Shown: one piece after another, positions 17,501-63,751 of the stretch
How positions within the stretch are numbered: the stretch's first letter is position 1
Layout: the number at the start of each line of letters is the position of its first letter
Origin: Laetmonice hystrix
Taxonomy: Eukaryota
Direction of reading: 5' to 3'
Assembly (NCBI GenBank): GCA_965235115.1
Contig: OZ249440.1
Coordinates: 18,042,001-18,106,000 of the forward strand
DNA: 64,000 nt
The notes under the pieces: generated by a model
The model's database searches: none
The model's input: the letters and a program-made list of their open reading frames with translations, nothing else
Told to the model about the DNA's origin: nothing
Position numbers and translations under genes: made by a program

Positions 17501-18002
17501 CATAAGATATTCATGTGTTACCGGCCTAGTTGGCATTTCCTCTGGAAAACACCCCAAATTCCAAGTTATTGATTTCGGTACGAAACTATTGACAAACGGT
17601 AAATGTGACTGTCATAAATTATATCGTTATATCTTTATTTACATGTGAAAGTCTTTTTCACGGAAGTTGCTAAACCGTTAATTGAAGATGGTCAAAAGCT
17701 ACTTGCCGCTTCAATTCCTCCAACGAAGGTTTCGTACCCCTTCCTTTAGAAACCTTTCTAATCTCCAATAGTCCGAGCCGAGTACTAATTATTGATGGTT
17801 ACGTCGTCTGTTGTAATAGGATATTTGTCAACCACTGGGATCAATTGTGTGTGGTTGACTGAGGGTAAACGGGGTCACACCTGGGCCAGGTGTGCCTTGT
17901 TAAAGTAAAGGTATCCTCATATTGTTTAACTCACTCACATATTATACCCAGACCTTGCTGACTGAAGGAAATTAACCTTACTATTGGTCCGGATCACACG
18001 CA

Positions 18003-18229
18003 CAGACCGGTCTATAACTCCATACCAATCTCATACTGAGAACAGACAGAAGACTACCGTCAGACAGTCAATGTCTGACAGACCGGTCTATAACTTCATA
18101 CCATTCTCATACTGAGAACAGACAAAAGACTACCGTCAGACAGTCAATGTCTGACAGACCGGTCTATAACTCCATACCATTCTCATACTGAGAACAGACA
18201 GAAGACTACCGTCAGACAGTCAATGTCTG
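18003..18229. repeat. 76-bp tandem repeat x3
   Basis: CAGACCGGTCTATAAC... starts at 18003, 18079 and 18155. The copies differ at only a few positions. Confidence 0.95.
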
Positions 18230-19273: not shown

Positions 19274-19954
19274 CATTATCAACAAGCCGAAAGACGTGAC
19301 GCCCGCAGCATTGTGGCGTTAGCACGTGCGAAAGGTTTGGGTTGCAAACAAAAGGGCTCTGCAGTATTGTTAGAGGGTGTCCGCTATAATCCACGAGAGT
19401 TTAATTCCCTCCCGCATAACTTGTCACTGGAAGCAGCCAAAATAGTTCAGGTACCAGACGGTTTGGCCTTTCAGGGGCACCATGCATACCTCAGCAATAT
19501 GTATGCCATTCCCGTCCAGTACGCAGGAAACACTTTCCCTAGCGCCGAATCAGCGTATCAAAGCACATGTGCCAGGGTGCATGGGGAGGAAGCATTAGCT
19601 TTGCAAATACAGGCCGAGAGTGATCCATACGTGGTTAAAAGATTGTCCCGGCGTGTTCGAACCAGCGATGAATGGAACCTCAAGAAAGTGACCATAATGA
19701 AGGAAATTGTCGAATCAAAGTTCGACCAGAATGACACCATACGTGAAAAACTTCTGAAAACTAAGGGACAGCTCTTTGAAGCTACTACAGACAGTGTGTT
19801 TGGTTGCGGCTTCACACTCGGTCAACGCAACAGGATAAGCGCAGACAACGTCATCTCTGGAAACCACTTGGGCCTGATCCTTGCCAAATACAGAGACACC
19901 TACAGCATCAACAACGCGGAGCCTACAGCACAAGCACCACCAAAATCGAAGTAG
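19274..19954 (+). CDS. C-terminal part of an ORF1-like protein with a NADAR (YbiA/DUF1768-like) domain; 5'-incomplete
   Basis: The frame is open from 19274 (after TAA at 19271-19273) to TAG at 19952-19954. NADAR motifs appear in order: YLSNMY, FPSAESAYQ, PYVVKRLSR, W..KK..IM...KFDQN, LLKT..QLFEATTDSVFGCG, GNHLGLILAKYRD. They are preceded by ERRDARSIVALARAKG..KQKGSAVLLEGVRY, which resembles the end of a LINE ORF1 RRM/CTD region. The first in-frame ATG (19499) lies inside the domain. Confidence 0.85.
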   Translation, partial: HYQQAERRDARSIVALARAKGLGCKQKGSAVLLEGVRYNPREFNSLPHNLSLEAAKIVQVPDGLAFQGHHAYLSNMYAIPVQYAGNTFPSAESAYQSTCARVHGEEALALQIQAESDPYVVKRLSRRVRTSDEWNLKKVTIMKEIVESKFDQNDTIREKLLKTKGQLFEATTDSVFGCGFTLGQRNRISADNVISGNHLGLILAKYRDTYSINNAEPTAQAPPKSK

Positions 19955-19979: not shown

Positions 19980-20654
19980 ATGACCACTACAATTAACAGG
20001 TTTATTATCTTAGGCGATTCAAGAACTAAACATTTCGGGAAATTATTGAAGCACCATAACTTCCAACCCAATACAGAAGTAGTGTTAGAGACATACCCGG
20101 GTGCCACAATACTTGATGCGGCACGGCGCTTCCTGCGTAGTAACACCCACGTGTCGCTCACCGGGGTGAACGCGTATATCGTCCTGGCAGCAGGGGTCAA
20201 CAACCTTACAAGGCTCGACCGATCCTATGACGGTTCGAGGCGCATTGTCCGGCCAATCTTTAATGACATACCTGATATGGTTGACTCCTTAACAGACAGA
20301 TACACTGAGGCTAAACAGATGTTGAATGAGGCAGGGTATCGATGTATCATTTGTGAGCTGACAGGTCTGGATGTGAATAGGTACAATAGGGCAACAACAA
20401 ATTATATTAAACTCCAAGAAATTATCGACGAAGGGGTACCAATTCTGAACAGAGCCATATCTGCTCTGAATTACGATGACTGCCTGCCTACCCCGTTTCT
20501 ACAAGACTCAATCCATCACAAAGTAAAGAAGACAGACGTTTGCCGGAAAACGAAATATGCTAAATTAAGTGACGGTCTTCATCCCGATGAGAAAACTGCT
20601 GGACGCTGGTTGGAACAAATACTGAAAGCCATTAACAAGATTACCAAAAAATAG
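19980..20654 (+). CDS. SGNH/GDSL-family hydrolase (esterase), 224 aa, LINE ORF1-type esterase as a separate ORF
   Basis: Block I IILGDSRT, block II YPGA, block III AAGVNN and block V SDGLHP are all present, so the Ser-Asp-His triad motifs are intact. The ATG at 19980 has A at -3, and the frame is open from 19878. Confidence 0.88.
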   Translation: MTTTINRFIILGDSRTKHFGKLLKHHNFQPNTEVVLETYPGATILDAARRFLRSNTHVSLTGVNAYIVLAAGVNNLTRLDRSYDGSRRIVRPIFNDIPDMVDSLTDRYTEAKQMLNEAGYRCIICELTGLDVNRYNRATTNYIKLQEIIDEGVPILNRAISALNYDDCLPTPFLQDSIHHKVKKTDVCRKTKYAKLSDGLHPDEKTAGRWLEQILKAINKITKK

Positions 20655-20656
20655 TG

Positions 20657-21720
20657 GGTCTGGTCCGTATGGACAACCCTCTACCTCTGAATGTACTCCC
20701 CTATGACATGATGGACTTTATAAGTATAAAGTTCGATGTGTGAGTCTAAGGTGGCTGGGCGTGGGTGTGCGTGTGTGTGTGTGCGCACTGCTTGCGGGTC
20801 TGGTCCGTATGGACACCCCCCGCTTGCTTTGTGTGCATGTATCACCTCACACAATCAATATGACTCTAGCCCCGAATTGTTTGAACTCGCATCTGTTTAT
20901 TGAACTAATCCGTGTGTCTGGTCCGTATGGACAACCCTCTACCTCTGAATGTACTCTCCTATGACATGATGGACTTTATAAGTACAAAGTTCGATGTGTG
21001 AGTCTAAGGTGGCTGGGCGTGAGTGTGTGTGTGCGCGCACTGCTTGCGGGTCTGGTCCGTATGGACACCCCCCGCTTGCTTTGTGTGCATGTATCACCTC
21101 ACACAATCAATATGACTCTAGCCCCGAATTGTTTGAACTCGCATCTGTTTATTGAACTAATCCGTGTGTCTGGTCCGTATGGACAACCTTCAAACTCTGA
21201 ATGTACTCTCCTATGACATGATGGACTTTATAAGTATAAAGTTCGATGTGTGGGTCTAAGGTGGCTGGGCGTGGGTGTGGGTGTGTGCGCGCACTGCTTG
21301 CGGGTCTGGTCCGTATGGACACCCCCCGCTTGCTTTGTGTGCATGTATCACCTCACACAATCAATATGACTCTAGCCCCGAAATGTTTGAACTCGCATCT
21401 GTTTATTGAACTAATCCGTGTGTCTGGTCCGTATGGACAACCCTCTACCTCTGAATGTACTCTCCTATGACATGATGGACTTTATAAGTACAAAGTTCGA
21501 TGTGTGAGTCTAAGGTGGCTGGGCGTGGGTGTGTGTGTGCGCGCACTGCTTGCGGGTCTGGTCCGTATGGACAACCCTCTAGCTCGGAATGTATTCCACT
21601 GTGACTTCACAGACCTTATAAGTGTTTACGATAGTTTGTTGTGCGGGTGCAAAGGGTGTGTATGCGCGGCTGCATACTGTTTGTTGGATCTGGTCTGTAC
21701 GGACACCTCCCACCTATTGT
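20657..21720. repeat. ~252-258-bp tandem repeat (3.5 near-identical copies plus one diverged half-copy) inside the retroelement spacer
   Basis: The core GTCCGTATGGAC starts at 20663, 20803, 20921, 21055, 21173, 21309, 21427 and 21561, with a variant GTCTGTACGGAC at 21693. Spacing alternates between ~135 and 118 bp. Confidence 0.95.
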
Positions 21721-22013: not shown

Positions 22014-24882
22014 ATGGCCAACATGGATCATGCAATAAGTAGCTGTAATGATTTAGCCGCTATCAAGGGCCTGAAAATTGCACATCTGAATGTCAGAAGC
22101 CTTCCTGACAAAATTGATCAATTAAGAATTCTACTACTGAATGAACCGGTAGATATTATGTGCATCTCTGAAACCTGGACGAATGATAACTATACACCAG
22201 CCTTATTGGAAATACCAGGTTATGAACTTACTCTGTATAACCGTACTACACGTAATGATCAAGGCAATCCTGAAAGAGGTGGAGGCATAGGTTATTATGT
22301 TAGATGTCAATCTAATTTTTCAGTTACCCCTTTACATGCCTTGAACATTTGTGAGAATTATATGGAAAGTTGCTGGATTAACATTTGCTATAAGTATTCT
22401 AGACCTTTGACACTGGGGATAATATACAGGCGGCCCTCTGGTTCCCTTGAAAACTGCCTAGAGGCACTTCATGAGATGCTTAATTCTATTCCATCGGGTA
22501 ATGATATTATGATGATCGGAGACTTTAACATTGATTTTGCTAAAAATAATAACAATTCTAGGAAACTTAAAGAATTAGCACGCGAGAGATCTCTGAAACA
22601 GTTGATTAAAACACCTACCAGAGGAACACATTATACAAGTACAACTATTGACCTAATATTCGTAAAGGCCGATCACATTGTCCAGAGTGGCACAATTCCC
22701 TGTGGATTAAGTGATCATAATATAATTTTTGTTATCAAAAAGAAAATACAACCTACACATACGAGTGCAACCTTTCAAGGACGAAGCTACAAACACTTGG
22801 ACATTCCTAACTTACAAGCACGTATATCAGCCTTGGACTGGTCACCTTTCTATGAATGCTGTGATCCTACACTTAGTTGGGATATTATGCTAGGTAATAT
22901 AATGTCCGTCACCGATCTGCTATGTCCCCTCAAAGAAATAAAGATAAAAAAGGTTAAACAACCGTGGATTAACAACCTTTTACTTGAACTAATGAATGAT
23001 AGAGATGCTGTTCTGAAGCGACATGAGCAGACAAAAGACCCGGCTGACTGGGACTTGTATAAAAGGCTGAGAAACGAGGCTAAGAGAGGAGTCCGTGAAG
23101 CTAAAGAAGAGTTCATAATTGACAATCTTGTGAAACACGAAGGTGACCACAAAAAGTTCTGGAAACAGATAAATGATCTATTTCCTCGCTCTGGTAAGAA
23201 CAATGCTACTTTCAGACTGATTGAGCCAAATGGCAATACTGAAGTTGATGAAAGTAAGACTGCTGATTATATCAACTCATTTTTTGTGAATATTGGTCCT
23301 AACCTTGCCCAGCACTTCAGAGAACCCTGGGATACGGATATGGTCAGGTCAAACCTAGAACTGCTAACTATGGTTACCACTGAAGAGGAGGTTAAGAAGC
23401 TAGTTAAAGAAATTAACATATACAAATCCTCTGCTATTAAGAACATTTCATCGAAAATTCTCAAACCTGCATTCCTAATCCTAATACCTCAACTCACACA
23501 CTTGTTCAATCTATGCCTTACACATGGATTATTTCCTGATAGCTGGAAGGTTGCTACAGTCATTCCACTACAAAAAGATGGTGATAAGTCGGATGTGGGA
23601 AACCTAAGGCCAATCTCGTTACTTCCTCTGCCAGGGAAGATGTTAGAAAGGGTAATCCATGCAAATTTAATGCCTTTTCTCACAGAAAATAACCTAATAT
23701 CTGAAAAACAAGGTGGTTTTAGGCCTGGTTTTTCAACCACTAGAAAAATAGCGGACTTAACTGATGACATATACGAAGCTATGAATAATCAAGAAATTAC
23801 TGTGGCAGTCTTTATTGATTTTAAAAAAGCTTTTGATACGGTTGATCACGAAATTCTTCTCAGGAAACTAGACTTACTTGGTATTAGGAATATAAACCTT
23901 AACCTAATAACTAACTATCTATCCAACAGGAAACAACAGACCTTGGCAAATAATGTTATGTCAGATACTGCAAACATCACGTTTGGGGTCCCCCAAGGCT
24001 CTGTTCTCGGTCCGCTATTGTTTCTATTGTACGTGAATGATTTACCAGACTGTATTCAAAACGGACGTTCGCAATTATATGCTGATGACACAACTGTCTA
24101 CCAAAAACACAGTAATGTATATTGTGCGGTTCAGAGCCTTCAAGATGACCTTGACCGTTTAATGCATTGGTGCAACCTGAATAAATTAACGATCAATGTT
24201 AAAAAAACTAATAGCTATGATCTTCACTACTAAACAAAGAAAGAAAAGGCTTCCGCCAATCAATCTGACATTAGGCAATGAGCGACTCGCTATAGTAGAC
24301 TCGTATAAGTACCTGGGACTTACTCTAGACAGCACACTTAATTTTGAAAACCATCTTAAAAATATGGTAAAAACCATAAGTCACAAACTATTTATGCTAA
24401 CTAGGCTACGTCGACTGTTAACTCAGGCTGCTGCCGAAAGAGTCTATAAAACAATGATTTTACCATACTTTGACTATGCAGACATCTTCTATGAGGCATG
24501 TTCACAAAACAAACTCGATAAGTTACAAAGGATCCAAAATCGGTCTCTTAGATGCATAGCTGGTGTCAACCAAAAACATCTTTCCACTGATGAATTGCAT
24601 GAAAAGTTAAATCTCTGTAAGCTAATTACTAGAAGAAAACAGCATCTTGCGAACTTTATGTTTAAAAGATCATCGGACCCCCACTATATAGACAATAGAA
24701 ACCTAATAACAAGAGAACATAGGAAAAAGCTCATGGTAGTGACTAAACCTAATTTAGAAAAGTTCAAAGACTCCTTGGTGTATAAAGGCTCTAAACTTTG
24801 GAATAGCCTAAGTATGGAACACCAAGTATGTGCATCATATAAACTTTTTAAATCCAAAACAAAGAACTGTATTGTAGATTGA
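22014..24882 (+). CDS. LINE ORF2: APE endonuclease + reverse transcriptase (~955 aa if one apparent 1-nt insertion near 24212 is removed)
   Basis: APE motifs: HLNVRSL, ISETW, RGGGIG, IYRRPS, GDFNID, TPTR..TIDLIF, SDHN. RT motifs: WK.A.VIPL.K, NLRPISLL...GKMLE, QGGFRPG.ST, FIDFKKAFDTVDH, GVPQGSVLGPLLF, YADDT. The C-terminal frame has YKYLG, YKTMILPYFDYA and GSKLWNSL. Removing T24212 restores INVKKTKAMIF and joins track ORFs 22014..24233 and 24196..24882. Confidence 0.97.
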
Positions 24883-25161
24883 AGGAATGTGTATGTTTGT
24901 CCCCTGTATTTGGCCCTATTAAGTTGACATGTAATTTATGTGTATCATGGCATTTCCCCCCTGTACAGATGCTATAATCACCCACACATCTCATTATCAT
25001 CTCACTCTTCTATCATACCTATGTAATAGATAGTATCGAGGATAAGGTATTAGGGAAACGCGTGACTATTGTAGGAGGTTTACCAGGAAACAGGCTTATA
25101 GCCTTGTGTATATCTTCTTCAATAAAGATCATGTTTAAAAAAAAAAAAAAAAAAAAAAAAA
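24883..25161 (+). terminator. Retrotransposon 3' UTR with hairpin, polyadenylation signal and poly(A) tail
   Basis: AGGCT-TAT-AGCCT hairpin at 25092-25104, AATAAA at 25121-25126, and 25 A residues at 25137-25161. Confidence 0.85.
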
Positions 25162-41613: not shown

Positions 41614-43933
41614 ACCTGTCAGGGTACTATCGTGGAGTCCTGTCAGGGAACGATTGTGAACAACACTTACAGAATCCCCTACATCCACGGCTGACCTGTC
41701 AGGGTACTATCATGGAGTCCTGTCAGGGTACTATCGTGTACAACACTTACAGAATCCCCTACATCCATGGCTGACCTGTCAAGGTACGATCGTCTACAAC
41801 ACTTACAGGATCCCCTACATCCATGGCTGACCTGTCAGGGTACGACCGTCTACAACACTTACAGAATCCCCTACATCCATGGCTGACCTGTCAGGGTACG
41901 ATCGTCTACAACACTTACAGAATCCCCTACATCCATGGCTGACCTGTCAAGGTACGATCGTCTACAACACTTACAGAATCCCCTACATCCATGGCTGACC
42001 TGTCAGGGTACGACCGTCTACAACACTTACTGAATCCCCTACATCCACGGCTGACCTGTCAGAGTACGATCGTCTACAACACTTACAGAATCCCCTACAT
42101 CCATGGCTGACCTGTCAGGGTACGACCGTCTACAACACTTACAGGATCCCCTACATCCATGGCTGACCTGTCAGGGTACGACCGTCTACAACACTTACAG
42201 AATCCCCTACATCCATGGCTGGCCTGTCAAGGTAGGATCGTCTACAACACTTACAGAATCCCCTACATCCATGGCTGACCTGTCAGGGTACGATCGTCTC
42301 CATGGCTGACCTGTCAAGGTACGATCGTCTACAACACTTACAGAATCCCCTACATCCATGGCTGACCTGTCAGGGTAGGATCGTCTACAACACTTACTGA
42401 ATCCCCTACATGATACATCCATGGCTGACCTGTCAGGGTACGATCGTCTCCATAGCTGACCTGTCAAGGTACGATCGTCTACAACACTTACAGAATCCCC
42501 TACATCCATGGCTGACCTGTCAGGGTACGACCGTCTACAACACTTACAGAATCCCATACATCCACGGCTGACCTGTCAGGGTACGACCGTCTACAACACT
42601 TACTGAATCCCCTACACCCATGGCTGACCTGTCAGGGTACGACCGTCTACAACACTTACAGAATCCCCTACATCCATGGCTGACCTGTCAGGGTACTATC
42701 ATGGAGTCCTGTCAGGGTACGATCGTGTACAACACTTACAGAATCCCCTACATCCATGGCTGACCTGTCAGGGTACGATCGTCTACAACACTTACAGAAT
42801 CCCCTACATCCATGGCTGACCTGTCAGGGTACTATCATGGAGTCCTGTCAGGGTACGATCGTGTACAACACTTACTGAATCCCCTACATCCATGGCTGAC
42901 CTGTCAGGGTACGATCGTCTACAACACTTACAGAATCCCCTACATCCATGGCTGACCTGTCAGGGTACGACTGTCTACAACACTTACAGAATCCCCTACA
43001 TCCATGGCTGACCTGTCAGGGTACGATCGTCTACAACACTTACTGAATCCCCTACATCCATGGCTGACCTGTCAGGGTACGACCGTCTACAACACTTACT
43101 GAATCCCCTACATTCATGGTTGACCTGTCAGGGTACGACCGTCTACAACACTTACAGAATCCCCTACATCCATGGCTGACCTGTCAGGGTACGATCGTCT
43201 ACAACACTTACTGAATCCCCTACATGATACATCCATGGCTGACCTGTCAGGGTACGATCGTCTACAACACTTAGAGAATCCCCTACATGATACATCCATG
43301 GCTGACCTGTCAGGGTACGACCGTCTACAACACTTACAGAATCCCATACATCCACGGCTGACCTGTCAGGGTACGACCGTCTACAACACTTACTGAATCC
43401 CCTACACCCATGGCTGACCTGTCAGGGTACGACCGTCTACAACACTTACAGAATCCCCTACATCCATGGCTGACCTGTCAGGGTACGATCGTCTACAACA
43501 CTTAGAGAATCCCCTACATGATACATCCATGACTGACCTGTCAGGGTACGATCGTCTACAACACTTACAGAATCCCCTACATCCATGGCTGACCTATCAG
43601 GGTACGATCGTCTACAACACTTACTGAATCCCCTACATCCATGGCTGACCTGGTACGACCGTCTACAACACTTACAGAATCCCATACATCCATGGCTGAC
43701 CTGTCAGGGTACGATCGTTTACAACACTTACAGAATCCCCTACATCCATGGCTGACCTGTCAGGGTACGACCGTCTACAACACTTACAGAATCCCCTACA
43801 TCCATGGCTGACCTGTCAGGGTACGATCGTCTACAACACTTACAGAATCCCCTACATCCATGGCTGACCTGTCAGGGTACGACCGTCTACAACACTTACA
43901 GAATCCCCTACATCCATGGCTGACCTGTCAGGG
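41614..43933. repeat. 56-bp minisatellite array (~2.3 kb, about 40 units) with 31-, 63- and 80-bp variants
   Basis: Unit CATCCATGGCTGACCTGTCAGGGTACGATCGTCTACAACACTTACAGAATCCCCTA. Period 56 is confirmed at 41762/41818 and an 80-bp variant at 42671/42751. Confidence 0.97.
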
Positions 43934-48110: not shown

Positions 48111-50167
48111 TGTGTGTATCTTATGGTCAAATATTGCTGTACTTACCGCTCTGACAGCATCCTTTGTTTGAAGTCAGCTCTGTCCTCAAACTAAACCATA
48201 CCATTAGATTACGTAATACGTATCCCGGTAAGTATACTGAACGGTAATCCCATTTCCGTACAGAGAGCGCTAACATCACGGATATCCTAACGTTTTAATC
48301 CGGACATCTCAAGGGTATTAACTCGCCGTTTTTCTCCTATAAACCAGGAGTGGATGGTAAGACCACTCGCCGGCTGTTTCCACGGGTACACACCACTCAG
48401 ACAGATACGGTCCACAGCCCGCCGGCCTGGGTTAAAACCGTACTACCTTAACAAGCAGGTGGTACTAAAATGACATGTAGTAGACCCCTGACACATGCTA
48501 TGCATGTTTCCTGATGGTTCCTGTAGGTATACGACACAGCTGCCACCTGGATATCATGACCAACTCAAGCTTCCCACCAGTGTTTGCTAACTTAGGGCCT
48601 ATATATTATGATCCTTCCGGGATCAATCACCTCATACCTACCACAGCGCCAGGGATCCTTTCAGTTTCAGAACTTAGCTTCCGCCCTTTTAAAACACAAC
48701 TTGCCAACAATCAGTTTACTTTGTCTTGAGTCCCAGGTGTGCCAGTTTTTGCCCCGCTGCACTCTCAAACTCCATTATTGTACTCCACCAAGGACGCTGC
48801 ACATTTCCTATTTATAATGGCCGTTTTTTGTGTTCACCGACCACAGCTCCATCCCCTGGGAGCCTGGGTATCAGGTAACAAATCCTCGGTCACGTAACAA
48901 CCACACATTGGCCGGGATGTCTGGACGACCGTGAGAGGTTGACCAGCACGGCTCGAGTCCCCGCCGTCCACAGCTGCGCCCCTGTTGTCTCCGGTCCCCG
49001 GATGGAGCAGGGGTATGAGCAGGAGACTGGTCTACAGACTCCTGCACAGCACCACACAATCACACACACATACACACCCGAGGTTACACGCTTCGTTTGT
49101 CGGCACGACGTGTACCATAAAGTCGGTTTGTTGAAGTGCACACACATAAACCAAGCTGGGCAGTGTATGCACGGCTGTGTTGTGTACGGATGTTGTGGTC
49201 ATGTGTGTATTGATGTTGGCGTGACCTTGGGACAGAGCCGGACACAAGGCAGCCTCATCTTCCATCATCATCATCACCAGCCGACATCATCAAGGTTCCA
49301 CAGCCCATGCAATGGTGGACATATAGAGTTGGCTTGGCAACGGATTGCTATATATGTATCTGTGACACTGGGCTCGACTGGGACCAGATAATTGGGTCAT
49401 TGGTGTCAGTTACTGCCAGGATACCCACCTGTGTACATGTGCTGACCGTCCACATATCCTGATCTATCTCTGCCTCATGGCACATTGACCCCACAACAAA
49501 CAAGTTTTGAATGTGCATTAACAAATTGTATCGATTTAATAAATCTACAAATCATATATCCGGATCCCACACTAAGAAAATTGTAAGATCTGAAATAGCT
49601 AATCGCAATTATGACGAAGACTTAGAAAAAACAGCAGTATGTAAATTTGGTAAGTTCCATCTTGTCTGCCTACGGGCCTGAATCTCTAGATCCTTGATGA
49701 CAGTCTCCAGAAATATGTCACTGCAAACAACGAGTAACACACGTGTCTGCACGCCACCGGCACACATTGCTGGCATTCCTACAGCCGTCGGCATAATTAA
49801 TCATTATGGACCGATACAAGGCACGTGCCCCATCTACTCAACAAAAGAAGAAGGCAATCGAATAAAATGTATCAGTTTTACCATCTTAATTAGTTTGGTT
49901 TGGAGAACTAGACTAAAGTCGTCACCAGTTGGTTGTCCTGCTGGGTTGCTATCAATCCTATTACAAACGTAAAGTTGAAAGCTCGGGGGGATTAAATCCA
50001 GTCATCATCCCTGTGTCAACTGAACACACATGATCAGAATGTCAACTTTCACGCGACAGCATGAGTCGTGACCAGGCGTTATTTTAATCTATTCTAATGC
50101 CAATATTTGCGCAAGTTGCATGTTTGAGATTATGCACCTTTTCAATCATTATCGACCTTTTATTCAC

Positions 50168-51069
50168 TAATATAACGGGATTATTGCCACACTGGTAGGA
50201 TCTGACATGACAGAGGTTTCGCCATGGTGAGTCTGCTCACTGACATGTCTAATATAACGGGATTATTGCCACATTGGTAGGATCTGACATGACAGAGTTT
50301 TTCGCCATGGTGAGTCTGCTCACTGACATGTCTAATATAACGGGATTATTGCCACACTGGTAGGATCTGACATGACAGAGGTTTCGCCATGGTGAGTCTG
50401 CTCACTGACATGTCTAATATAACGGGATTATTGCCACATTGGTAGGATCTGACATGACAGAGTTTTTCGCCATGGTGAGTCTGCTCACTGACATGTCTAA
50501 TATAACGGGATTATTGCCACATTGGTAGGATCTGACATGACAGAGTTTTTCGCCATGGTGAGTCTGCTCACTGACATGTCTAATATAACGGGATTATTGC
50601 CACATTGGTAGGATCTGACATGACAGAGTTTTTCGCCATGGTGAGTCTGCTCACTGACATGTCTAATATAACGGGATTATTGCCACATTGGTAGGATCTG
50701 ACATGACAGAGGTTTCGCCATGGTGAGTCTGCTCACTGACATGTCTAATATAACGGGATTATTGCCACATTGGTAGGATCTGACATGGCAGAGTTTTTCG
50801 CCATGGTGAGTCTGCTCACTGACATGTCTAATATAACGGGATTATTGCCACATTGGTAGGATCTGACATGGCAGAGTTTCGTCATGGTGAGTCTGCTCAC
50901 TGACATGTCTAATATAACGGGATTATTGTCACACTGGTAGGATCTGACATGACAGAGGTTTCGCCATGGTGAGTCTGCTCACTGACATGTCTAATATAAC
51001 GGGATTATTGTCACACTGGTAGGATCTGACATGACAGAGGTTTCGCCATGGTGAGTCTGCTCACTGACA
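50168..51069. repeat. 82/83-bp minisatellite x ~11
   Basis: Unit TAATATAACGGGATTATTGCCACA(C/T)TGGTAGGATCTGACATGACAGAG(G/TT)TTTCGCCATGGTGAGTCTGCTCACTGACATGTC, starting at 50168, 50250, 50333 and so on. Confidence 0.97.
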
Positions 51070-63102: not shown

Positions 63103-63751
63103 ATCTCAGGTCTCTCAATGTCACACTATCTAGTGGAACCTTTCTATGTGTATGTCCACAGACAGGTCTATCCTGCTGGCCCTGCATGCTGCCATAATAA
63201 CGGCAAGAGTTATAAAGTAGTGTACACGCTGATGTAAGACGCCGAGATCACCTCCTGATATCTCAGGTCTCTCAATGTCCCACTATCTAGTGGAACCTTT
63301 CTATGCCATGGTGTATGTCCACAGACAGGTCTATATCCTGCTGGTCCTGCATGCTGCCATAATAACGGCAAGAGTTATAAAGTAGTGTACACGGTGATGT
63401 AAGACGCCGAGATCGCCTCCTGATATCTCAGGTCTCTCAATGTCACACTATCTAGTGGAACCTTTCTATGTGTATGTCCACAGACAGGTCTATATCCTGC
63501 TGGCCCTGTATGCCGCCATAATAACGGCAAGAGTTATAAAGTAGTGTACACAGTGGTGTAAGACGTTGGGATCGCCTCCTGATATCTCAGGTCTCTCAAT
63601 GTCACCCTATCTAGTGGAACCTTTCTATGCCATGGTATATGTCCACAGACAGGTCTATATCCTGCTGGCCCTGTATGCTGTCATAATAACGGCAAGAGTT
63701 ATAAAGTAGTGTACAGGGTGGTGTAAGACGCCGAGATCGCCTCCTGATATC
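63103..63751. repeat. ~157-165-bp tandem repeat x4 with alternating short/long units
   Basis: ATCTCAGGTCTCTCAATGTC starts at 63103, 63260, 63425 and 63584. Units 2 and 4 carry an extra CCATGGT-containing insert that units 1 and 3 lack. Confidence 0.95.

Follow-up and report, generated by a model that had tools for sequence, protein, structure and literature searches.

Lineage-specific hairpin arrays behind a free-standing esterase gene in LINEs of Laetmonice hystrix, candidate docking sites for the enzyme on element RNA

Membrane targeting is the job proposed for the esterase that some LINE retrotransposons encode as part of a fused protein. In the accessible text of the relevant reports, type IV ORF1 proteins of CR1, L2 and RTEX elements, including ZfL2-1, contain an SGNH esterase with its catalytic triad and show exchange of the 5′ part of the element (PMC3905857, PMC4120745), and modular exchange of ORF1 between ORF2 lineages is described there for ORF1s generally (PMC4120745). 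In ZfL2-1 a coiled coil and an arginine-rich motif are joined to the esterase, which binds acidic lipids but did not bind oligo-(A) RNA; the latter counts against an esterase as a reader of RNA (PMC3905857). The parts available of two further reports place stand-alone GDSL ORFs in rotifer retroelements (PMC5408684) and a NADAR domain fused to ORF1 in Tx1 LINEs of Crassostrea gigas (PMC12477816). Esterase LINEs, NADAR ORF1s, repeat-bearing spacers and structured retrotransposon RNA signals are known kinds already. The literature searched gave no lineage-specific hairpin array that is tied to a free-standing esterase and taken up by other LINEs, and no conserved hairpin that has moved between spacers and 3′ UTRs of LINEs unrelated to one another; descriptions of these families may exist in Repbase, subscription journals or supplements.

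The window analysed here, a stretch of 64,000 nucleotides taken as a whole, contains a three-gene LINE comprising an L1-type ORF1 with a NADAR domain, a free-standing SGNH esterase and an APE-RT ORF2. The copy spans ~19280 to the poly(A) at 25161 and is 5′-truncated, with the match to a longer, 99% identical copy (L029) beginning at ~19280. No target-site duplication was seen around it. Its parts are as follows.

19280..19954, + strand: ORF1, 3′ portion, with the end of RRM-CTD and the NADAR domain (PF08719, E 5e-22)
19980..20654, + strand: free-standing SGNH/GDSL esterase ORF, 224 aa (alignment, predicted model, fold search)
20655..21720, + strand: hairpin array, 3.6 units of 252 bp plus a diverged half-unit
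22023..24882, + strand: ORF2, APE endonuclease and RT of CR1-group type, in two frames (22014-24233 and 24190-24882)
25121..25161, + strand: AATAAA and poly(A) tail

APE and RT domains in ORF2, the 3′ tail and the 5′ truncation mark the element as a LINE of the CR1 group, and in the RT grouping these RTs are set apart from the Tx1-like L105 and L113. The ORF2 of the window copy is frameshifted. A short stem-loop was seen by eye at 25083-25101, near the 3′ end and before AATAAA; 3′ hairpins occur in CR1/L2 elements, and this one resembles them. Because the window copy is truncated, the class of the ORF1 protein was assessed on L029 (L029:2012-3349), whose 446-aa product has the coiled coil (helix 29-130), RRM and CTD of type II, L1-like ORF1 proteins, followed by NADAR. 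It matches the L1 ORF1 protein 2yko with E 2e-8 by profile and E 1e-7 by fold, and resembles the NADAR structure 8bau. NADAR on the ORF1 protein is shared with the C. gigas Tx1 LINEs, and L105 and L113 also have Tx1/L1-type RTs; in contrast, most families here have CR1-group RTs, and the accessible text on the C. gigas elements mentions neither esterase nor array (PMC12477816).

The esterase retains Ser, Asp and His of the SGNH triad. Across 25 aligned esterases S18 and H205 are invariant and D202 is present in at least 90%. The predicted model has a pLDDT of 94, with GDSL enzymes as its closest folds (Z 17.9), and the ZfL2-1 esterase (4c1b) is matched with E 0.0018. The enzyme has the catalytic residues of a type IV esterase but is not part of ORF1p, where type IV elements place it after a coiled coil and an arginine-rich motif. 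Compared with ZfL2-1, it is a separate ORF behind a NADAR ORF1, has no such tether, is ~45 residues longer and carries basic β-hairpins, and is followed by the hairpin array, of which the available ZfL2-1 text makes no mention (PMC3905857). One basic β-hairpin, at about residues 180-195, lies just before the DGxH motif. It corresponds to profile columns 171-190, the blocks of the esterase most specific to hairpin type (identity 0.8 within and 0.3 between types), although residues 221-250 of ORF1 are equally type-specific. RNA binding by an SGNH fold is known from the OSK domain of Oskar, but OSK lacks catalytic residues, and hairpin specificity is not described in the part of that report available (PMC5785220); no esterase was among the matches listed for the Pfam OSK model. 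The window esterase AUG lies 25 nt after the ORF1 stop, and this distance is 1–70 nt or more in the families inspected. In L068, L070 and others it is as little as 1 nt, and such tight spacing is as expected for termination-reinitiation.

The initial annotation described a 1359-nt gap between the esterase and ORF2, with an array beginning 2 nt behind the esterase stop, and this description holds (stop at 20654, ORF2 frame from 22014, first ORF2 AUG at 22023). The ~255-bp units that it counted 3.5 times have a period of 252 bp and 3.6 copies at 95% (Tandem Repeats Finder, 20654-21577), and the two halves of each unit, A of 134–140 nt and B of 118 nt, indeed show no relationship beyond the core, their alignments scoring z −0.4 to 1.0 relative to shuffles. 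All nine of the cores it listed were recovered: GTCTGGTCCGTATGGAC is present in eight exact copies, starting at 20658, 20798, 20916, 21050, 21168, 21304, 21422 and 21556, and a ninth at 21688 has 3 mismatches; neither strand of the window has another match at up to 3 mismatches. The half-unit 3′ of core 8, annotated as a diverged and older half-unit at 21573-21720, is related to half A but has diverged from it (z 7.5–9.7). The spacer is as rich in AUGs as stated, with 46, of which 9 lie 3′ of the last core. Genome-wide, the exact core occurs 27 times, against 0 for the reversed control. Contigs from two runs of one sample span both the esterase-array and the array-ORF2 junctions, so the array is not an assembly artefact. 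The core of each copy lies within a predicted hairpin, here called type T1.

20647..20690, + strand: hairpin copy 1, directly behind the esterase stop
20787..20830, + strand: hairpin copy 2, full lower stem
20905..20948, + strand: hairpin copy 3, lower stem broken
21039..21082, + strand: hairpin copy 4, full lower stem
21157..21200, + strand: hairpin copy 5, lower stem partly broken
21293..21336, + strand: hairpin copy 6, full lower stem
21411..21454, + strand: hairpin copy 7, lower stem broken
21545..21588, + strand: hairpin copy 8
21677..21720, + strand: hairpin copy 9, diverged, no fold predicted in context

Folding in context agreed in part with the claim that several copies form a hairpin as RNA. 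The upper stem GUCC-GUAU-GGAC has a pairing probability of 0.94–0.99 in five of the nine copies, but only 0.56–0.81 in three that lack the lower stem, and the fold is broken or missing in 4/9. The diverged ninth copy, which had been said to keep the stem, has a probability of 0.06. A T1 covariance model recovers the nine window copies, by construction since it was built from them, and nothing else notable in the window. Rfam models, those of ribozymes and the IRE included, gave no match in the array and, outside it, one chance snoRNA match (E 2.3). The core is similar to hammerhead stem II; a hammerhead or other ribozyme was ruled out, there being no catalytic core and no Rfam match.

Searching the genome for the esterase yielded 96 matches, and the 60 retrieved, together with four loci found by the core and the window, represent 35 families. 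Most of the esterase-bearing families have a spacer array, each with its own predicted hairpin, and the array is a clade-wide trait. In uninterrupted copies the spacers are 0.6–2.1 kb long, most hold repeats of 43–400 nt, and the last hairpin lies a median of 394 nt before ORF2. Different families have 196 segments in common, against 14–27 in shuffles; part of these are an inserted repeat in three loci and two close families, and the remainder are short cores. Sorted by eye, the cores fall into 18 hairpin types. Between sister families the hairpin is the only sequence in common, and T1 occurs in families whose esterases are 57% identical and whose repeat units are unrelated. All 293 motif matches (65 sequences) lie on the sense strand inside the spacer. 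Genome-wide pattern matches number 67 for T1 (5 in the control), 90 for T2 and 74 for T3 (0 in each control), 34 for T5 and 29 for T6. The array of the window family is present in other copies, and comparison across copies and families shows the core to be far better conserved than the surrounding units; the initial annotation had named the opposite outcome, absence elsewhere or a core no better kept than its flanks, as the one that would tell against it. Its reading of the core as a near-perfect palindrome altered at a CpG found no support, since the loop is GTAT or GTTT at each of the 67 genomic sites matched by a T1 pattern that leaves the loop free. The GTTT loop also rules out a perfect-palindrome or kissing-loop reading. 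Long, repeat-bearing non-coding DNA before ORF2 is shared with vertebrate L1 inter-ORF regions (PMC5381506) and the 5′ repeats of CR1-group elements (PMC13343379), yet the L1 spacers have no common RNA structure in the text available (PMC5381506), whereas in the present elements short cores are kept from one family to the next and co-vary.

Copy number varies among near-identical copies, from 7 to 9 for T1 and from 6 to 16 for T3; L252 holds 17 T2 hairpins spaced 93 nt apart. The esterases of L071 and L087 are close, yet their hairpins differ. In L125, T1 hairpins lie 720 nt behind a T2-clade esterase, probably the result of two insertions. Relatives in other assemblies comprise 24 free-standing esterases and 8 ORF1s, known as proteins without DNA context. 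The T1 pattern was matched at 11 viral and 19 metagenome loci in other organisms, none with ORF1, esterase, APE or RT, and these we take as chance because they are single matches without LINE ORFs.

Support for base pairing is strong in the sister type T2 and modest in T1. In T2, both sides have changed in 7 of 12 pairs, which 0 of 500 shuffles reach, in a set of 22 of the 26 instances with four degenerate ones left out; related sequences can exceed shuffles. L092 and L121 have the entire lower stem replaced with pairing kept. The covariation check that had been suggested for T1 found nothing in the register first tried and, in a 4x4-loop register selected later, two pairs that change together. 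T1 folds weakly, the antisense slightly better than the sense strand (z −1.7 and −1.0), and in its 23-nt conserved block variation between families falls only at predicted unpaired sites. When lower stems were swapped, an instance's own halves paired better in 19/26 T1 and 20/26 T2 instances, but not in T4 or T6. Of 17 types, 13 have the more stable fold on the sense strand (p 0.057 on z-scores). Comparing G-U with A-C did not clearly separate the strands, with 16 and 9 cells for T2. In predicted folds of all types but T14, unpaired bases of the first internal loop are more numerous on its 5′ than on its 3′ side in 14/17 and the reverse in 0/17, against 215:227 in background windows; the types share ancestry, so these are not 14 independent events.

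Bulged stem-loops present more than once per transcript, in retrotransposon RNA among others, are also a feature of the Egl-BicD signals (K10 TLS, I factor ILS and GLS; PMC13186709). In the accessible text those signals have 3′-strand bulges, spaced U-A pairs with G-C disfavoured at two contact sites, and little common sequence, unlike the hairpins here with their 5′-side excess, G-C-rich stems and invariant lineage cores (PMC13186709). The bend from 3′-strand bulges expected of an Egl signal is accordingly missing from the predicted folds (14/17 types 5′-sided, none 3′-sided); T1 and T2 stems are mostly G-C.

The hairpin type follows the upstream part of the element. The nearest neighbour carries the same type in 21/21 cases by esterase, 16/16 by NADAR and 14/14 by RRM-CTD, compared with 11/15 by APE and 10/13 by RT. 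T1 families form a clade on RRM-CTD, NADAR and esterase, and a single T1 clade is rejected on RT (p-AU 5e-64) and APE (7e-48). T5 is present in L105 and L113, with Tx1/L1-type RTs, and in a third family with a CR1-type RT, the RTs being as little as 22% alike; T5 families as a group on RT were not rejected (p 0.096, unrooted test). Since the hairpin follows the upstream domains and not ORF2, ORF1, esterase and array form a module that has been joined to several ORF2s. Co-inheritance of hairpin type with the element's own protein is what a cognate pair would display, and linkage could also yield it: the array is directly behind the esterase, so that one deletion can remove both, and linkage alone could explain much. 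Parsimony counts on the trees were uninformative because most hairpin types are single families.

NADAR matches in the genome number at least 150, most of them on LINE ORF1s without an esterase, and we sampled these elements irrespective of esterase, taking 40 loci by ORF2 (40 of at least 150) and 70 by NADAR (70 of at least 150). Foldable repeat arrays were detected in the spacers of 28/34 esterase-bearing, 7/50 esterase-less NADAR-ORF1 and 5/5 esterase-deleted representatives, or in 27/33 esterase-bearing against 6/24 esterase-less when only spacers of at least 600 nt are counted, although these figures mostly measure repeats, as 177 of 300 random 150-nt spacer pieces pass the hairpin test if duplicated. 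In the ORF1 tree all esterase families fall in one clade (support 98), with eight esterase-less lineages that have no spacer array nested inside. L143, whose ORF1 is 69% identical to that of a T3 family, has no T3 in its spacer and no exact T3 match nearby. Independent esterase/array pairs, of which 4 to 5 of 7 are informative, all point in the same direction (p 0.125). In the other ORF1 clade, the 40 families mostly do without an array (36 by one count; the tree labels are 6 with and 34 without a called array).

Derivatives with the esterase deleted keep the array: seven copies at 99–100% identity share one deletion, and two copies share another. These derivatives retain arrays and are mobile, so the esterase is not needed in cis. 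The seven near-identical copies are of a T2 derivative (L158, G000:C19:13252800-13258700), and similar deletions were observed with T1 (L123), T3 (L139, L141), T6 (L166), a T9-like type (L145) and T14 (L144). Splicing was rejected as their origin, the junctions, read by eye, having no GT-AG ends.

Hairpins have also been captured by families that have no esterase. The T1 variant with a GTTT loop, which removes the AUG and breaks the palindrome, has 21 occurrences at 12 loci. Eleven of the 12 (11/11 of those retrieved match) belong to one family that has no esterase, whose ORF1 is unrelated and whose ORFs are open, and which includes L239 and L243. Here three T1 hairpins lie in the 3′ UTR, 116–620 nt behind the ORF2 stop, and the only sequence shared with the spacers of esterase families is the 28–30 nt hairpin itself, 96% identical to L030/L032. 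L237, the twelfth locus, belongs to the other ORF1 clade and carries related T1 units in its spacer. The ORF1s of the T1-capturing families are only 31–36% like those of T1 families. Another esterase-less family has a single T6 hairpin with ~90 nt of flanks (two loci examined, six by pattern). L146 combines a T6-like hairpin in the spacer with T1 in the 3′ UTR, and the spacers of L146, L169, L202, L153, L168 and L164 have hairpins, single or repeated, that match no sampled esterase family.

Together, these results show the array to be conserved and probably a signal recognised at the RNA level. The lineage-matched motifs and their pickup by unrelated, esterase-less elements suggest a docking tag for the esterase on RNA, and we tentatively favour a model in which the arrays serve as docking sites for the element's own free-standing esterase, in lineage-matched pairs. 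Through the hairpins several esterase molecules would be recruited to the RNP, with the basic β-hairpin before the catalytic DGxH loop as the predicted RNA-reading surface. A free esterase lacking the coiled coil and arginine-rich tether needs another way onto the RNP, and a tag in multiple copies would give one. Since such a protein could also work in trans, the model would account for both the retention of arrays in derivatives and the capture by outsiders: deletion derivatives and hairpin-capturing families would borrow the enzyme of others. Small bulged hairpins read by an element's own protein in lineage-specific pairs are familiar from the MS2 and PP7 coat protein-operator complexes and Tat-TAR, which are alike in working only; those systems are viral, their readers are coat or arginine-rich proteins, and no hydrolase is involved. 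With still more reserve, the whole could be a portable module, a diffusible SGNH enzyme with at least 18 orthogonal hairpin pairs in one genome, in which theft of a hairpin hijacks another family's enzyme much as satellites use a helper's packaging signal.

The role of the LINE esterase and the way in which LINE proteins choose their RNA are open questions, and a free esterase with a lineage-specific RNA partner would bring both within direct reach of experiment, using a protein of 224 residues and an RNA of 30 nt. If the docking model is right, a catalytic SGNH fold recognises RNA sequence-specifically, helper proteins act in trans and signals are stolen among LINE families, and the genome supplies naturally occurring protein-hairpin pairs, orthogonal to one another in the manner of MS2/PP7. 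Even with ORF1p or a host protein as the reader, the movement of a conserved hairpin between unrelated LINEs would be new to the literature searched.

Of the three functions guessed at initially, multivalent protein-binding sites on RNA fit best, while the reader then named, ORF1p, fares less well. As nucleation sites for ORF1p (coiled coil-RRM-CTD-NADAR) on its own RNA, akin to a packaging signal, the hairpins would track the ORF1 tree, which they do as closely as the esterase tree; ORF1p contains an RNA-binding fold with type-specific residues at 221-250, and ORF1 and array are kept together in the esterase-deleted derivatives. Families of the other ORF1 clade mostly have no array, however, L143 retained a T3-type ORF1 and not T3, and T1 is present in families with distant ORF1s. 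We consider ORF1p quite unlikely as the reader, and between the two proteins the distribution points more to the esterase, a reader that the initial annotation had not considered. A host RNA-binding protein acting in transport, export, stability or germ-line targeting, from which any carrier element would gain, is also unlikely, if less so. It would account for capture by unrelated families at two positions, for retention in mobile derivatives without the esterase and for a shape common to the hairpin types, and the I factor ILS is, in the text available, a retrotransposon localisation signal read by a host protein (PMC13186709). Such a reader sits poorly with 18 different sequences, each near-invariant within its lineage and tracking the element's own proteins, with the lack of a spacer array in most esterase-less families, and with the absence of Egl-type 3′-strand bulges and the mostly G-C stems of T1 and T2.

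That the arrays are neutral products of template slipping, their cores persisting by linkage and gene conversion and the hairpins marking sites where the RT pauses or jumps, is very unlikely. Free variation in copy number among near-identical copies, amplification of degenerate copies in the window and mobility of derivatives without the esterase are all as neutrality would have it, but it does not readily explain a 23-nt block kept between families that differ in their units and have esterases only 57% identical, and again in a foreign 3′ UTR without flanking similarity, nor the compensatory changes in T2. The internal promoter and the internal-initiation element, the remaining two initial guesses, are poorly supported, and a monomer promoter or ribosome entry element for ORF2 is the most improbable reading of those considered. 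An L1-type monomer promoter, as in mouse, lies at the transcript 5′ end upstream of the ORF it drives, whereas the array in the window is internal and the hairpins of L239 and L243 are behind ORF2. In its favour, 46 AUGs precede ORF2, four truncated copies begin within or at the array (L126, L250, L251 and perhaps L125), and the accessible texts describe repeat subunits near the 5′ UTR of ORF1-less CR1-group elements (PMC13343379) and IRES predictions for long L1 spacers (PMC5381506). Against this, the motif does not travel with ORF2, the last hairpin is well separated from it with nine AUGs between in the window, and none of the few copies of the window family starts between array and ORF2. 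T1 placed behind ORF2, with a loop lacking both AUG and palindrome, makes a promoter or entry site for ORF2 unlikely and favours a portable RNA tag. Finally, hairpins could inhibit the cognate esterase as an RNA antidote, shielding the carrier RNA or RNP, with captured hairpins as mimics. A repeat array beside an enzyme gene, cognate pairs, and capture and expansion by outsiders are also seen in ToxIN and phage pseudo-ToxI (PMC5086642, PMC3475682), and the type-specific β-hairpin adjoins the catalytic loop. There is no sign, however, of esterase toxicity, and most LINE families do without a hairpin. ToxIN differs in being bacterial, with an RNase toxin and pseudoknots upstream of the gene that are cut into monomers, as far as the available text goes (PMC5086642, PMC3475682). 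Type III toxin-antitoxin loci have repeats upstream of an endoribonuclease gene and a terminator between, while the repeats here are downstream of the esterase gene. We regard an antidote as highly improbable.

Some repeats and reading frames encountered in the survey are of separate note. In L118 and L099, arrays of 61-nt and 52-nt units extend for more than 2.6 kb behind the esterase, with no ORF2 in the stretch examined, and are perhaps spacer arrays grown into satellites. L124 (G000:C10:28925000-28934900) has three T1 cores 2.2–2.8 kb apart in a long non-LINE repeat, with no lower stem. Open frames of 1660 and 1649 aa contain NADAR in L236 (G000:C1:23019250-23024100) and at G000:C8:28856722, respectively, which may point to an ORF1-ORF2 fusion in this family. 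The window has further, unrelated tandem arrays at 18002-18229 (period 76), 41719-43933 (56), 50167-51069 (83) and 63103-63751 (165).
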